From: a virus
Lineage: Duplodnaviria > Heunggongvirae > Uroviricota > Caudoviricetes
Reading direction: 5' to 3' (one strand)
DNA: 30,775 bases
IMG/VR virus record: IMGVR_UViG_2877958089_000005
Each line of letters starts with the position of its first letter. The first letter of the stretch is position 1. This document shows positions 17,574 to 24,409 of this stretch, one piece after another. Position numbers and translations under genes: made by a program. A model generated the notes under the pieces. It ran no database searches. It saw nothing but the letters and a program-made list of their open reading frames with translations, and was not told the origin of the DNA.

Positions 17574-17602
17574 AGGCTGGATAAACACCAGCCTTGATTT
17601 TA
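17574..17602 (+). terminator. Hairpin terminator at the S/cargo junction
   Basis: aggctgg-ataaacac-cagcct stem-loop followed by tgatttta; lies between convergent S (+) and the HIT gene (-). Confidence 0.5.
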
Positions 17603-18244
17603 TAGTTTGAAATCTGCGTAATTATCAATAACCTCTAGAACACCGCTGATGTTGTTATCTCTGCGCCAATTCCAATTGCCATGTATCAAATTTGCATTAG
17701 AATAAAGATATCTAAGGAACTGAGATGGTAAGAGTGGTTTGTTGCATAAAAATTCATCATAACTATTACTCATATACCACACATATCCATTTTTAATGTC
17801 AAAACTTAAATTCTCACCTTCAATTTTCTTAAAGTTAATTTCTTTATTTAGAGCATTTTCAAACTCTTGCGTATAATAAACACAGTGTATATGAGCGTGA
17901 GAAATGCACCCTCCCGAACGATCTATATTTTCACCTGCTCCGCTTTCAAAGAAAATTAGAGATCTACCAGATTGGTGGATTATAAATTCATTAAGTTCTC
18001 GCAGAATCTCCTTGCCATTACTCCGGGTATCTCGATCAAGAGCAGCAAAGGAGTTGATATGCCGCTTAGGAATCAGCATCACATGCGAATTATTTAGCGG
18101 GCCAATACTAGGTACAATTAGAAAATCATTTGTTTCTGCAATGATATTTTTCTTGTCATTTACGATTTCATCGTATCCTTTGATAAGGCTAATGCCATTT
18201 ATTTCATCGCATATTCCACAGAACGAATTACAAGAATTATTCAC
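17600..18244 (-). CDS. HIT (histidine-triad) family nucleotide hydrolase/transferase-like protein with a C-terminal extension; cargo gene 2
   Basis: 214 aa. Histidine triad H116-A-H-I-H120-C-V (GGCISHAHIHCVYY); upstream Hint-like FLIVPSIGPLNNSHVMLIPKRHI and N-terminal NSFCGIC, comparable to E. coli HinT as I recall it (ETIFSKII / THILIIPN / VYHIHMHLLGG). GTG start at 18244 with SD CAGGAGA 8 nt upstream, inside the 3' end of the TM gene. Confidence 0.8.
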   Translation of the reverse strand: MNNSCNSFCGICDEINGISLIKGYDEIVNDKKNIIAETNDFLIVPSIGPLNNSHVMLIPKRHINSFAALDRDTRSNGKEILRELNEFIIHQSGRSLIFFESGAGENIDRSGGCISHAHIHCVYYTQEFENALNKEINFKKIEGENLSFDIKNGYVWYMSNSYDEFLCNKPLLPSQFLRYLYSNANLIHGNWNWRRDNNISGVLEVIDNYADFKL

Positions 18245-18803
18245 GTTTATTGTCTCCTGGTTTTTTAGGGAGCAATTTTTCAGCCCAAGATGCGAGTCGG
18301 CTTAGAACTAAGTCTGAAAAATATCCTAATATAAAACAAATCGAGAATGCAATTTTGGTCTTACCATGCCCTTTAATGGAGGATACAAACGTATCCGGAG
18401 ATAATAGCGTATAAGAACAAAAAGCCACTAAAGCAGCTAAGAACGGAATAAAAATCCTCCAGTAGAACTTATGGGATTCCCAAGGGAAATTATACTGATT
18501 GTTTTTCCCTCTAGCAGTTACTCTATAAAACCATTTTGCATTATACACCCACCCTCCAAAAAAACCGCCAAGAATAGAAAACAAAGATATTTTATTATTA
18601 TATGTCAGCTCAAAAACAAATTGAAAAAGAAAGGCGAGAATGCAACCTATTACAAAAAGAACTATTAAATAAGCAAATTCGAATTTTATTTGTTCACAAT
18701 CGTTATTAAAATAAGGCACAACCTCATCATCGCCTAAGGTTTTTTTTCTTTCAGTCATTTGCCAAACACCTTCATTTTTTACTGTGAGCCAGGGTAATTG
18801 CAT
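18237..18803 (-). CDS. Polytopic inner-membrane protein (about 4 TM helices); cargo gene 1
   Basis: Hydrophobic segments FAYLIVLFVIGCILAFLFQFVF, ISLFSILGGFFGGWVY, FYWRIFIPFLAALVAFCSYTLL, IAFSICFILGYFSDLVL; basic C-terminal tail. Track start 18809 is TTG; first ATG is 18801-18803. Stop overlaps the HIT gene start region. Confidence 0.7.
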   Translation of the reverse strand: MQLPWLTVKNEGVWQMTERKKTLGDDEVVPYFNNDCEQIKFEFAYLIVLFVIGCILAFLFQFVFELTYNNKISLFSILGGFFGGWVYNAKWFYRVTARGKNNQYNFPWESHKFYWRIFIPFLAALVAFCSYTLLSPDTFVSSIKGHGKTKIAFSICFILGYFSDLVLSRLASWAEKLLPKKPGDNKRE

Positions 18804-18934
18804 ATTCAACTTGGCTATTCTAATTAATTCTCACAAGATTTCATAGATGTTGAGTAGACCTCTCAGAAGTTGTTTCATTCCTCACAGAATCCATCTCGAT
18901 TGCCACTAATCTTGCCGGGCGTCATCCTTCCCAT

Positions 18935-20829: not shown

Positions 20830-21430
20830 CCGGCTATTACCCGTTGGCTCGTCGCCGCTGGAGGTCGCCGCCGCCGCTGCGTTCTCTGAGATTCAGCGCG
20901 TGCCGGTACCGCTGCGCACCCTGTGGAACTGGCGCACCTGCCCGGTAAAGCTGCTGCCGTATCTGGCGTGGGCGCTGTCGGTCGACAGGTGGGATGAGAA
21001 ATGGCCGGAGGCGACAAAGCGCAGCGTCTGCGCGTCCTCGTTTTTCGTCCATCAGCACAAAGGCACCATCAGCGCATTGCGTCGGGTCGTCGAGCCGCTC
21101 GGCTTTCTGATTGAGGTGCGCGAGTGGTGGCAACTCGACGAGGAGCCAGGCACATTCCGCCTCGTTGTTGGCGTCCTCGACAGCGGCATCACTGACGAAA
21201 TGTATCAGGAGCTTGAGCGCCTGATTGAAGACGCCAAACCGGCAAGTCGCCACCTGACCGGGCTGGCTATCAGTCTGAGCTCGACCGGCGAACTGTATGT
21301 CGGCGCGGGATGCTATCACGGCGACGCGCTGACTGTTTACCCCTACACCCCCGAGGAGATTGTCGTCGGCGGTGAATATTACCCGGCCTCGGCCATCCAT
21401 TTGATTGATAACCTGAGAGTAAACGCATGA
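20822..21430 (+). CDS. I: Baseplate/tail-fibre attachment protein I
   Basis: 202 aa; overlaps the J stop; P2 I position. Confidence 0.8.
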   Translation: MNDRLLPVGSSPLEVAAAAAFSEIQRVPVPLRTLWNWRTCPVKLLPYLAWALSVDRWDEKWPEATKRSVCASSFFVHQHKGTISALRRVVEPLGFLIEVREWWQLDEEPGTFRLVVGVLDSGITDEMYQELERLIEDAKPASRHLTGLAISLSSTGELYVGAGCYHGDALTVYPYTPEEIVVGGEYYPASAIHLIDNLRVNA

Positions 21431-22491
21431 CCGCAAAATATTTTGCCATTCTGACCAATCAGGGCGCGGCGCGGCTGGCGAACGCGGCGGCACTCGGTAC
21501 CAAACTCAACCTGACGCAGATGGCCGTCGGTGATGCGAATGGTTCGTTGCCGACCCCTGAGCCGGCGCAGACGAAGCTCATTAACCAGAAACGCATCGCG
21601 CCGCTGAACCTGCTGACCGTTGACCCGGCCAATACCAGTCAGATTATCGCGGAACAGATTATTCCCGAGAATGAAGGTGGTTTCTGGATCCGCGAGATTG
21701 GTCTCTATGACGATGATGGTATTCTGATTGCCGTGGCGAACTGTCCGGAGACCTACAAGCCACAACTGCAGGAGGGAAGCGGTCGCACGCAGACCATTCG
21801 CATGATTCTGATTGTGTCGAGCACATCGGCAATCACCCTGAAAATCGACCCGGCAGTCGTGCTGGCAACGCGCCAGTATGTCGACGACAAGGTTATCGAG
21901 GTGAAAGGATATGCTGATGACCTGATGAAAAAACATGTTGAGGCCGCCAATCCACACAAGCAGTACCCGTTAATCGCTAATGCTCTGAAAGAAATGGTTG
22001 ACGCGGGACTGGTCGGCGACGTTCTTAAAAACCTTGGTTTGGGAGAAGGTGCTCCAGCTATTGGCGTTCCGTTCTTCTGGCCGTCCGCTGCAATGCCAAA
22101 TACTGTAATCGATAGCTGGTCCAGTATGGTGTTTTTGAAGTTCAACGGGGCGAAATTTTCTGCCTCTGATTACCCTGTGCTGGCAAAAGTGTTTCCTTCG
22201 CTGGTATTACCTGAAGCCCGCGGTGATTTCATTCGTATCTGGGATGATGGGCGAGGGGCGGACAGTGGGCGAGCATTATTAAGCTGGCAGGCAGCAACAG
22301 CTTTATCGCAATTTGGCGGTAATTATCCAGAAGGGTCCGGCCATGCGATTGCTGATTACGATGGAATATCAGCACACCAACCAGGTTTCTCTCGATTTCA
22401 GTACACCAGTAACTCAGTAGGAGATGGTGTTAATTTTATTGCCGTCAGACCACGTAACATTGCATTTAACTTTCTGGTGAGGGCTAAATAA
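21427..22491 (+). CDS. H: Tail fibre protein H: constant N-terminal part fused to the currently expressed variable C-terminal part (Sv)
   Basis: 354 aa; N-terminus MTAKYFAILTNQGAARLANAAALGTKLNLT is the conserved P2 H start; a hix-like crossover site lies inside the gene at 22022-22047, so residues after about 207 belong to the invertible segment. Confidence 0.85.
   Translation: MTAKYFAILTNQGAARLANAAALGTKLNLTQMAVGDANGSLPTPEPAQTKLINQKRIAPLNLLTVDPANTSQIIAEQIIPENEGGFWIREIGLYDDDGILIAVANCPETYKPQLQEGSGRTQTIRMILIVSSTSAITLKIDPAVVLATRQYVDDKVIEVKGYADDLMKKHVEAANPHKQYPLIANALKEMVDAGLVGDVLKNLGLGEGAPAIGVPFFWPSAAMPNTVIDSWSSMVFLKFNGAKFSASDYPVLAKVFPSLVLPEARGDFIRIWDDGRGADSGRALLSWQAATALSQFGGNYPEGSGHAIADYDGISAHQPGFSRFQYTSNSVGDGVNFIAVRPRNIAFNFLVRAK
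22022..22047 (+). repeat. hix/gix-like inversion crossover site (left inverted repeat), inside H
   Basis: ttcttaaaaaccttggtttgggagaa resembles the Hin hixL site as I recall it (TTCTTGAAAACCAAGGTTTTTGATAA); the 14-bp core TTGGTTTGGGAGAA recurs inverted at 23985-24010. Confidence 0.7.
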
Positions 22492-23084
22492 TGAAACCTG
22501 TTTTTGATGAAAATGGACTGGCTACAGTGCCGGGTGATATGCGTTGTTTTTATTATGATGCAGTAACGTATGAATATACGGGCTGGTCTGATGAATATAT
22601 TAATACTGGTGTAAGTATGCCCGCCTGTTCCACTGGTATTGACCCGGGCGAAAACATTCCGGGAAAAGTGGCAGTATTTACAGGTAAGGGATGGAGCCAT
22701 GAAGAAGACCATCGCAATGAGACTGTTTACTCAATCGAAAATGGTGCTGCTGTTACAGTGGATTATATCGGTGCCATCAAAAACGGTTATGTCACGCTTT
22801 CACCGTTAACGCCATATGATAAATGGGATGGTGAGAAATGGGTGACAGATACTGAGGCACAACACGGTGCCGCAGTAGAAGCGGCAGAAGCACAGCGCCA
22901 GTCACTGATTGATGCAGCAATGGCTTCCATCAGTCTGATTCAGCTGAAATTACAGGCCGGGCGGAAGCTGACGCAGGCAGAAACCACCCGGCTTAACGCC
23001 GTGCTTGATTACATTGACGCGGTGACGGCAACAGATACGAGCACCGCGCCGGATGTCATCTGGCCTGAACTGCCGGAGGCGTAG
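22491..23084 (+). CDS. G: Tail fibre assembly chaperone (P2 gpG / Mu U type), expressed orientation
   Basis: 197 aa; start overlaps the H stop; C-terminus ...PDVIWPELPEA parallels the C-terminus of the inverted copy (...PDIEWPTPPAVQAR). Confidence 0.8.
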   Translation: MKPVFDENGLATVPGDMRCFYYDAVTYEYTGWSDEYINTGVSMPACSTGIDPGENIPGKVAVFTGKGWSHEEDHRNETVYSIENGAAVTVDYIGAIKNGYVTLSPLTPYDKWDGEKWVTDTEAQHGAAVEAAEAQRQSLIDAAMASISLIQLKLQAGRKLTQAETTRLNAVLDYIDAVTATDTSTAPDVIWPELPEA

Positions 23085-23637
23085 GCCATTCAATATCTGG
23101 CGCACCGGAAGTATCGACCAGTTCCAGTGCGTCCAGATAATCCAGCCACAAATTATATTGCGCCAGTTCCTCACCTTTCAGGCGACCAATCGCCGCTTTA
23201 CCAGGCCATTGCTTACTGTTTATGTATTCGNNNNNNNNNNNNNNNNNNNNNNNNNNNNNNNNNNNNNNNNNNNNNNNNNNNNNNNNNNNNNNNNNNNNNN
23301 NNNNNNNNNNNNNNNNNNNNNNNNNNNNNNTCGCCGCTTTACCAGGCCATTGCTTACTGTTTATGTATTCGTTGACCTGATTAATCAATTGCTGCTTTTC
23401 CAGTTCGGCTGCGGCAATTTGTTCCTCATGAGTTGGCGGTGGAATATCAATCCATGCTGGCATTCCGTCGATGACACCTCTGTACTTTCCTTCTGGTGCT
23501 TCCTTCATAAATTCAGCGGCAGCAGTGTCGTCAATTTCGATTCCATCATCAGGCCATTTCCCCGCTTCCTGATAAGCAATTTTAAGCTCCACAGGGAAAA
23601 ACGCATTTTTATCAGCACTGAAAATATATTTCTGCAT
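23056..23637 (-). CDS. Alternative tail fibre assembly chaperone (U'-type), silent orientation; interrupted by a 100-N assembly gap
   Basis: 193 aa including X residues from the N-run; coordinates and length are only approximate because of the gap. Confidence 0.6.
   Translation of the reverse strand: MQKYIFSADKNAFFPVELKIAYQEAGKWPDDGIEIDDTAAAEFMKEAPEGKYRGVIDGMPAWIDIPPPTHEEQIAAAELEKQQLINQVNEYINSKQWPGKAAXXXXXXXXXXXXXXXXXXXXXXXXXXXXXXXXXXEYINSKQWPGKAAIGRLKGEELAQYNLWLDYLDALELVDTSGAPDIEWPTPPAVQAR
23231..23330. other. Assembly gap (100 N) flanked by an exact 41-bp duplication
   Basis: tcgccgctttaccaggccattgcttactgtttatgtattcg occurs at 23190-23230 and again at 23331-23371, either side of the N-run; consistent with overlapping contig ends scaffolded with a spacer. 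Confidence 0.9.
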
Positions 23638-23639
23638 TT

Positions 23640-23993
23640 CTACCGTCCTATCGAAATATAACTGAATCTGTATTGTTGAGAGATATCACTGATTGCCACG
23701 CGCCACGCTGAATTACTGATATGTTCAAAATTTACAGATAAAACCAGCGGTGCAGGATTCGACGGTTCTGACTGAACGGCATCAGACATGACACTGACTG
23801 AAACAAGCGGTTGATTAGGGAATGGTATAGGGAAGTGTCCACTGATAATGCGGGTCGTGTTCCCTGAAAAAGTGCCAAACTGAACAATATATCCACCTGG
23901 TAGCCTGAACCATCCCGAGCCAGAAGCGAATGCTCCCATATCCGGTATCTGATTTTCCCCTGTCCCCACATTCCTTCTTGCCGCTTCTCCCAA
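23640..23993 (-). CDS. Alternative tail fibre C-terminal segment (Sv'), promoterless in this orientation
   Basis: Reading the minus strand through the right hix-like site gives LGEAARRNVGTGENQ..., sharing the junction LGEGA/LGEAA with H; it would be fused in frame to the H constant region after inversion. Confidence 0.65.
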   Translation of the reverse strand: MGEAARRNVGTGENQIPDMGAFASGSGWFRLPGGYIVQFGTFSGNTTRIISGHFPIPFPNQPLVSVSVMSDAVQSEPSNPAPLVLSVNFEHISNSAWRVAISDISQQYRFSYISIGR

Positions 23994-24010
23994 ACCAACC
24001 TTTTAGAAAA
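23985..24010 (-). repeat. hix/gix-like inversion crossover site (right inverted repeat)
   Basis: ttctcccaaaccaaccttttagaaaa; its reverse complement ttttctaaaaggttggtttgggagaa shares TTGGTTTGGGAGAA with the left site. Confidence 0.7.
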
Positions 24011-24064: not shown

Positions 24065-24311
24065 ATGTTTATCGGTTATGTACGTGTATCAACAAATGAC
24101 CAGAACACCGCATTACAGCGAAATGAACTGGAGTGCGCAGGATGTGAGCTGATTTTCGAAGATAAAATCAGCGGCAAAACATCAATCAGACTGGCCGGGG
24201 CTAAAGAGGTTACTCAGAACCTTGTCAGAGGGCGATACGCTTGTGGTCTGGAAACTGGATCGCCTCGGGTATCTCAACGCTATACAAACAATTTCCCGCA
24301 TCCGTTGCTGA
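24065..24311 (+). pseudogene. Remnant of a Hin/Gin/Pin-family serine DNA invertase (frameshifted and C-terminally deleted)
   Basis: ATG 24065: MFIGYVRVSTNDQNTALQRNELECAGCELIFEDKISGK... resembles the Hin N-terminus, including the catalytic Ser in YVRVSTNDQ; the conserved GDTLVVWKLDRLG is encoded one frame over from about 24231, implying a 1-nt insertion; similarity ends near 24270 and FI begins at 24410, so over half the gene, including the DNA-binding domain, is missing. Confidence 0.7.
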
Positions 24312-24321
24312 TGTCTCAATG

Positions 24322-24346
24322 TGTCAGACATCGCCCAACACTGACA
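24322..24346 (+). promoter_or_regulatory. Dyad-symmetric element upstream of FI (candidate late-activator site or remnant of the invertase 3' region)
   Basis: tgtcag-N13-ctgaca perfect 6-bp inverted repeat about 65-90 bp upstream of the FI start; spacing does not match the P2 TGT-N12-ACA consensus. Confidence 0.25.
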
Positions 24347-24409
24347 AATAGCCCCTCAACAGACCAGCCAGGACAATAACACTTGCCCACTAACCACGGA
24401 GTTAACCGG

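Follow-up and report, generated by a model that had tools for sequence, protein, structure and literature searches.

An invertible tail-fibre cassette beside a wrecked invertase gene in a P2-like Escherichia coli prophage, a probable orphan host-range switch

The window analyzed here, a 30,775-nucleotide (nt) stretch of viral DNA (IMG/VR record IMGVR_UViG_2877958089_000005), is a P2-like (Peduoviridae) prophage of E. coli in which the tail-fibre gene H runs into an invertible cassette bounded by two inverted 26-base-pair (bp) crossover sites of the Din type. The cassette inverts precisely at these sites between near-identical public genomes, both tail-fibre proteins that it can encode recur in public data, and the serine invertase gene next to it is dead. 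We consider it likely that the cassette is an orphan Pin-type switch, which a Pin-like invertase resident in the cell flips in trans and which is locked where no such enzyme exists. A broader reading, toward which we lean only slightly, is that a widespread P2-like lineage lives with an orphan host-range switch of this kind, having lost the invertase and kept the sites and the Fis enhancer, so that its choice of tail fibre would be set by the Pin-like invertase of other prophages, with flipping in polylysogens and locking otherwise.

The left crossover site (22022-22047, a feature without strand; TTCTTAAAAACCTTGGTTTGGGAGAA) has its core TT at 22034-22035 and reads TTCTCCCAAACC AA GGTTTTTAAGAA when written in the orientation of the published sites. 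The right site (23985-24010, also without strand; TTCTCCCAAACCAACCTTTTAGAAAA, reverse complement TTTTCTAAAAGGTTGGTTTGGGAGAA) has its core at 23997-23998 and reads TTCTCCCAAACC AA CCTTTTAGAAAA in the same orientation. Each is built of two imperfect 12-bp inverted half-sites around a 2-bp core, the core dinucleotide is shared, and the sites face each other in inverted orientation, as is the pattern in the Din family. When the left site was compared with the reverse complement of the right one, 21 of 26 positions were identical, including 15 contiguous bases (TTGGTTTGGGAGAAG) that span the central TT and the entire inner half-site, which bears out the pair of 26-bp inverted sites with outer ends at 22022 and 24010 proposed in an initial annotation of the window. 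A search with a 19-nt motif (up to 3 mismatches) returned just these two places in the window, against a mean of 0.00 in 100 shuffles, and the two sites are not a chance pair. As there are only two sites in the window, the locus is not a shufflon or a multi-site cluster of the Rci or Min kind.

The sites were scored against the published Din-family consensus table (Table 3 of PMC3241671), where they agree with pixL/pixR of the e14 element at 23 of 26 positions, with hixL at 21 of 26, and with gix and cix at 17-20 of 26. The left site fits the Din consensus at every position and the right site misses two (pixR misses one). The resemblance to Hin hix sites that had been claimed initially is real in alignment, both in the Din pattern and in the hixL score, but the e14 sites are closer. 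The e14 sites were also extracted for comparison, and a 16-nt repeat of the window (TTGGTTTGGGAGAAGG, 22034-22049) is the exact repeat at which the e14 P segment inverts; PinQ and PinE have been reported to invert the e14 P segment at that very repeat (PMC12529663). A third, weak dix-like motif (TTCTTCTTACCTTTGGTTTTGGTGAA) was noticed at 510-535, in a probable integrase gene, with two mismatches in the 14-nt core; it was gone in the stricter search with the 19-nt motif and was taken as a probable chance match.

The setting of the cassette was established from Pfam matches (H, sheath, and others) and from the way RefSeq annotates the prophage of E. coli AST217, which is 99.97% identical; these give the plus-strand order V, W, J, I, H (21427-22491), the cassette, FI, FII, E, T, U, and D. 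This is the P2 late gene order (V-W-J-I-H-G ... FI-FII-E-T-U-D); the capsid, terminase, and replication genes are likewise of the P2 type, and the nearest phage records belong to the Peduoviridae. Gene H (plus strand, 354 amino acids) matches PF12571 over residues 1-150 (E = 5.5e-63), its constant part ends at the crossover at 22034/22035, and its expressed variable tip (approximately 22036-22491) is of the collar type, 40% identical to e14 StfE by blastp. The identity of H to related prophages breaks at 22048-22050, and the guanine-cytosine (GC) content is 57-62% in the flanks but only 40-47% within the segment, which together place the left site at the constant/variable junction of H, as initially annotated. 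H reads through the left site in frame as ...KNLGLGE/GAP, and the minus-strand frame that crosses the right site reads stop-KVGLGE/AARRNVG... in the same phase, with its stop just outside the site.

The expressed tip is followed by its own TfaE-like tail-fibre assembly chaperone (22491-23084, plus strand, 197 amino acids; PF02413, E = 1.8e-27; 63% identical to e14 TfaE) and by a second, convergent chaperone gene of the TfaP-like type (23056-23637, minus strand; PF02413, E = 2.7e-34 for the de-gapped protein; 56% identical to TfaP), the two genes sharing 29 nt at their ends, an overlap also present between tfaP and tfaE of e14. Next to the right site lies a silent alternative tip with a gp53-like C-terminal domain (23640-23996, minus strand; PF21882, E = 2.1e-9), which is in frame with H once the segment is inverted. 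No start codon of its own was found for this tip in the frame analysis, and no promoter-like site upstream of it in a promoter/terminator scan whose number of sites was no higher than in shuffles. The two convergent chaperone genes and the promoterless minus-strand frame that carries on the junction peptide of H, both present in the initial annotation, thus held up. Inversion in silico yields a 321-amino-acid protein, H', with a 146-amino-acid chaperone directly after it. A constant N-terminus, two opposed tips with a chaperone each, and a silent tip without start or promoter make up the layout of the host-range switches of the Mu G, P1 C, and e14 P type; here the two tips come from different folds or families (collar/StfE-like vs. 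gp53-like), and their exchange would be expected to change the receptor and the host range.

One feature inside the segment is an assembly artefact that had gone unnoticed in the initial annotation, as had the invertase remnant described below (24065-24351). A run of 100 N (23231-23330) lies between exact 41-nt duplicates (23190-23371 in all, no strand), and both 41-nt flanks align to a single 41 nt in the gap-free AST217 prophage (locus L005, 20977-21017). The run is a scaffolder join of two overlapping contig ends, the real sequence having one copy and no gap. The true segment is therefore 141 nt shorter, and the TfaP-like chaperone, which is annotated or called uninterrupted in AST217 and in Logan contigs, has a true length of 146 amino acids. 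The break falls in the conserved C-terminal part of the minus-strand tfa gene, a position that hints at another tfaP-like copy, and possibly another invertible cassette, elsewhere in the source genome.

The predicted inverted junction was searched against 5,426 complete E. coli genomes. In AST217, the junction flipped in silico is matched at 706/706 positions, and over 29 kb the prophage agrees with the window at 99.96-99.99% identity but carries 22034..24004 in inverted orientation, with breakpoints lying within 22034-22048 on the left and within 23984-24004 on the right. It is annotated with the 321-amino-acid H' (the gp53-like tip fused to H), followed by the 146-amino-acid chaperone, so the swap of tip plus chaperone that had been predicted from the window is seen directly. 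Two further pairs of near-identical genomes differ in the same way: CH423 and CH425, from one hospital, have flanks that are 100% identical over 4049 + 4012 nt around an inverted segment, and so do EC12 and EC15, from one study (5549 + 2658 nt). When the segments of a pair are aligned in opposite orientation, just two mismatches appear in each of the three pairs, the number that the CC/GG difference between the outer half-sites would produce; hence the inversions are precise, with the exchange inside the 15 shared bases. In a large protein collection, the exact H (354 amino acids) was present on 44 public contigs and the exact in-silico H' (321 amino acids) on 83.

These orientation differences could in principle be errors in the assembly of public genomes, given that the window has an assembly gap inside the segment and that the CH records are labelled whole genome shotgun. 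We regard this as hardly credible, as long reads span a 1.8-kb segment bounded by 21-nt repeats, three independent projects gave clean and exact inversions, and both protein forms recur on many independent contigs; moreover, an error in the consensus would itself need reads of both orientations, that is, a real inversion.

The gene that should supply the invertase is present next to the cassette as a remnant of a Din-family serine invertase (24065-24351, plus strand), recognized by tblastn with PinE and by a match to only the N-terminal part of PF00239. It begins with the sequence MFIGYVRVSTNDQNTALQRNELECAGCELIFEDKISGKTS, 55 nt outside the right site. Alignment with the intact invertases of IAL7250 (a related P2-like prophage), Mu gin, and P1 cin showed that codons 1-41 are intact and are followed by a 4-nt insertion at approximately 24180-24187, which shifts the frame, and by an internal deletion of ~310 nt with its junction at 24264-24285, while the original 3' end and stop (24351) are retained. 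PF00239 is matched over profile positions 2-76 of 145, that is, the first half of the catalytic domain; the deletion removes the rest of this domain and most of the DNA-binding domain. With the frameshift and the deletion, the encoded enzyme cannot be active, and neither a functional adjacent Din serine invertase (~185-195 amino acids, with a catalytic domain and a C-terminal helix-turn-helix) nor any other invertase was found in the window.

The remnant was documented at 9 loci and on 24 contigs. For the wider set of 37 carriers described below, the lack of an internal-probe match beside the constant part of H does not prove that all of them are without an intact adjacent invertase, since a match there would fall outside the joining distance of the search. 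The deletion junction is the same in all nine remnants (the window and eight relatives), and the 24 contigs with exact H that were read all have the same neighbourhood, including the 149-amino-acid open reading frame of the remnant. Its later decay differs between sub-lineages in the 24178-24197 region: a 4-nt ATCA duplication (+4 nt) is found in the window, AST217, Res13, and the phage 613R3, a 1-nt G deletion (-1 nt) in E1535, CH423, and CH425, and neither indel in EC12 and EC15. The common deletion junction, with a separate indel state for each flipped pair, indicates that the three flips are far younger than the deletion, and, going by these genomes, at least three inversions of the segment have taken place in the absence of an enzyme of its own. 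Such repeated flips after the deletion argue that the inversion is catalyzed in trans.

The same observations bear on the possibility that the switch is a frozen relic, dead since the deletion of the invertase, with both orientations either older than the deletion or brought in by exchange of cassettes. In favour of this, every relative examined has a dead invertase, no Din invertase was detectable in the searched parts of AST217, and the cassettes of the lineage are mosaic, their identity breaking exactly at the sites. On the other hand, the three pairs differ only by inversion, with flanks that are nearly or 100% identical, each carries its own later indel state in the remnant, and import of a cassette would not give a segment that is 100% identical but reversed. 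We therefore think it unlikely that the switch has stood still since the deletion.

As a separate observation, phage vB_EcoM-613R3 (ON470592.1; locus L004, 2890-4145) has the same truncated invertase and both sites around a different, shorter cassette, which holds an H with a gp53-type tip, two small chaperone genes, and ~440 unannotated nt at the place expected for the second tip. If this record derives from virions, it suggests that the lineage can still be induced despite having no invertase.

An uninterrupted homologue of the P1 cin recombinational (Fis) enhancer (24083-24154, no strand) survives in the 5' part of the dead gene, its near edge 85 bp away from the middle of the right site. 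In the P1 record, nt 19-90 of cin are annotated as the enhancer, and the homologue is identical to it at 59/72 positions, to the same stretch of pinE at 59/72, and to that of an intact P2-type invertase at 63/72. The first 113 nt of the remnant, including this stretch, are identical in all nine sequences. Wild-type Din invertases depend on an enhancer in cis that is bound by Fis and usually lies ~100 bp from a site (PMC3798978), and by its homology and spacing the remnant would still carry this third cis element and could still serve as a Fis-bound enhancer.

Taken as an orphan Pin-type switch, the cassette would work as follows. In the present orientation, H would be made of the constant N-terminus and the collar-type tip, followed by the TfaE-like chaperone. 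By cutting the two 26-bp sites at their central TT/AA, a serine invertase would turn the ~1.82-kb segment around, fusing the constant part in frame to the gp53-like tip, followed by the TfaP-like chaperone, and virions would then bear a different receptor-binding tip. The prophage's own invertase would have been destroyed by the internal deletion (and by the 4-nt insertion in the sub-lineage of the window), with the sites and the enhancer-homologous stretch kept, so that a Pin-like invertase of another prophage in the same cell would assemble on the two sites and the enhancer and flip the segment; locked cells would have none. Action in trans has precedent: PinQ, PinR, and PinE all invert the e14 segment, PinQ and PinR coming from other prophages, and Fin of Fels-2 inverts the Salmonella H segment (PMC12529663), which establishes it for the Din family and for this exact substrate.

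In order to look for such an enzyme, places with a match were counted per chromosome with and without a 311-nt internal invertase probe (from the part missing in the remnant), the result being the difference of the two counts, without coordinates. The number of such places is exactly one in the CH clone, two in EC12, and one in EC15. Among 37 complete genomes that carry this constant part of H (at least 98% identity), 14 have zero places, and eight of these zero-place carriers (FDAARGOS_1280, 2779, 98210, 98192, 98224, 222, 103, and 5283), which apparently form one clone group, are all in one orientation, while both clone groups with an invertase homologue (CH and EC) are polymorphic in orientation. 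The pattern is anecdotal, and it agrees with a segment that flips in cells with an enzyme and stays locked in cells without one. The clpB-glyA region of CH423 was also looked at for an invertase and nothing was found there.

In E. coli, recombination between homologous stretches shorter than ~25 bp is very inefficient. This matters for another explanation of the flips, namely general recombination between the 15-21-bp inverted repeats, whether RecA-dependent or by replication slippage, with no site-specific invertase involved. It would suit an exchange that can be mapped to the 15 identical bases and not to the central dinucleotide, as well as the flipped AST217 genome, in which no invertase was detectable. 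We nevertheless judge it very unlikely, as the repeats are shorter than that length, three independent flips in a few dozen genomes along with the 44 vs. 83 contigs point to an efficient process, PinE, PinQ, and PinR act on exactly this repeat, and both flips within clones occurred in clones with a Din-invertase homologue elsewhere.

Several points weigh against the orphan Pin-type switch as we read it. In AST217, the flipped twin of the window, the chromosome has no place that matches the internal 311 nt, the plasmid pAST217_1 (185 kb, pAA-like), searched whole by tblastn, has no invertase, and the first 50 kb of pAST217_2 (IncI1) contain only distant or truncated serine recombinases, namely one of 190 amino acids that is 36% identical to PinE and lies near qnrS1, and a truncated one; the search did not extend to the remaining 46 kb of this plasmid or to any further plasmids of AST217. 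With no Din invertase detected in AST217, its flip would have taken place in an ancestor or another host, or by an enzyme not visible to this search. In the CH and EC genomes, the candidate loci are known as counts, without position or intactness. The conservation of the enhancer region is not significant (0 variable sites in 72 nt vs. ~1.5 expected at the 2.2% rate of the remnant), and the switch in the window's own source genome may be locked. The identity of a trans-acting enzyme as a Pin-like invertase is put forward here as an expectation of the reading, and flipping in that source strain as a possibility. As a side observation, the flipped prophage of AST217 (NZ_AP043630-32) adjoins rplS/trmD/ffh.

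From sequence comparison, the closest known system is the P segment of e14 with Pin in E. coli K-12 (stfP-tfaP / tfaE-stfE / pinE), so that the Mu G-like cassette of the initial annotation was right in the logic of the switch but not in its nearest relative. Both loci consist of a constant part with a tip, a chaperone, a convergent chaperone (29-nt overlap), a silent tip, a site, and an invertase gene that is read outward from the segment; they have an identical inner half-site with core (TTGGTTTGGGAGAA) and the junction peptide NLGLGEG in common, in addition to the similarities of sites, chaperones, and collar tip given above. They differ in that the constant part of e14 belongs to a lambdoid side tail fibre, whereas that of the window is P2 gpH, set in a late operon of the P2 type that is complete in other respects. 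Furthermore, StfP is not matched significantly by the gp53-like tip, and a deletion remnant of the adjacent invertase stands where e14 has an intact pinE.

The position of the cassette in a P2-like prophage, with the invertase between cassette and FI, is known and common. P2-like cassettes with an intact invertase (E. coli IAL7250, enteropathogenic E. coli E2348/69, and Fels-2 with Fin) share the location between H and FI, the site type, the two tips, and the two chaperones, and sequencing has shown that such loci of P2-like prophages undergo phase variation (PMC4272514). Their invertases are functional-looking and 185-197 amino acids long, whereas ~310 internal nt are deleted here, and the constant part of H is only ~80% identical to that of IAL7250 at the DNA level. 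What sets the present cassette apart from the known systems is that its adjacent invertase is wrecked while the segment still flips. No description of this prophage lineage was found in a limited search of the literature.

Mu G/Gin and P1 C/Cin share the logic of Sc + Sv/U vs. Sv'/U' and the 26-bp sites, their enhancer is located within the 5' end of the invertase gene, as is the putative one here, and Mu also has the same order of a site followed by an invertase reading away. They differ from the window in their sites (matches at 17-20 of 26; the gix core is GA, here AA), in their tips, which have no significant similarity, in their chaperones, which are ~30% identical over the C-terminus only, and in the size of their segments, which are larger (3.0 and 4.2 kb, respectively). 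Salmonella Hin/hix has the same 26-bp site pattern (hixL at 21 of 26), and the core AA/TT, its enhancer lies ~100 bp from a site, much like the putative one here, and one outer half-site here starts with CC/GG beside the core as in hixR; in contrast to the present cassette, Hin flips a promoter and not coding tips, and no tail-fibre genes are involved.

A switch of this type is textbook biology, and the main value of the analysis is in correct annotation: a silent tip, a 'partial' tail protein, and a 'frameshifted recombinase', which pipelines treat as pseudogenes, would be parts of one working device. Flipping that is kept after the loss of the own enzyme would be a clean natural case of cross-talk between prophages, with the receptor choice of one phage under the invertase of another. 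If this is true, the orphan switch mirrors the case of e14, on which the orphan invertases PinQ and PinR act, and host range would depend on the enzyme of another prophage. For the prediction of host range and for typing, this means that near-identical isolates may differ at this locus without any mutation.

Outside the cassette, the window carries two minus-strand cargo genes (17600-18809) between the tail-completion genes and the baseplate gene V. They encode a HIT-family protein of 214 amino acids and an unannotated protein of 190 amino acids in the open reading frame call (173 as annotated), in a stretch of 33-35% GC vs. ~58% in its flanks. The stretch is present in AST217 and in Logan contigs and absent from the related CH423 and EC12 prophages, in which V starts 69 nt after the morphogenesis gene, with no cargo genes in between. 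A PADLOC scan of these low-GC genes gave no match; the pair resembles a moron, or may be defence cargo, inserted at a variable spot of P2.

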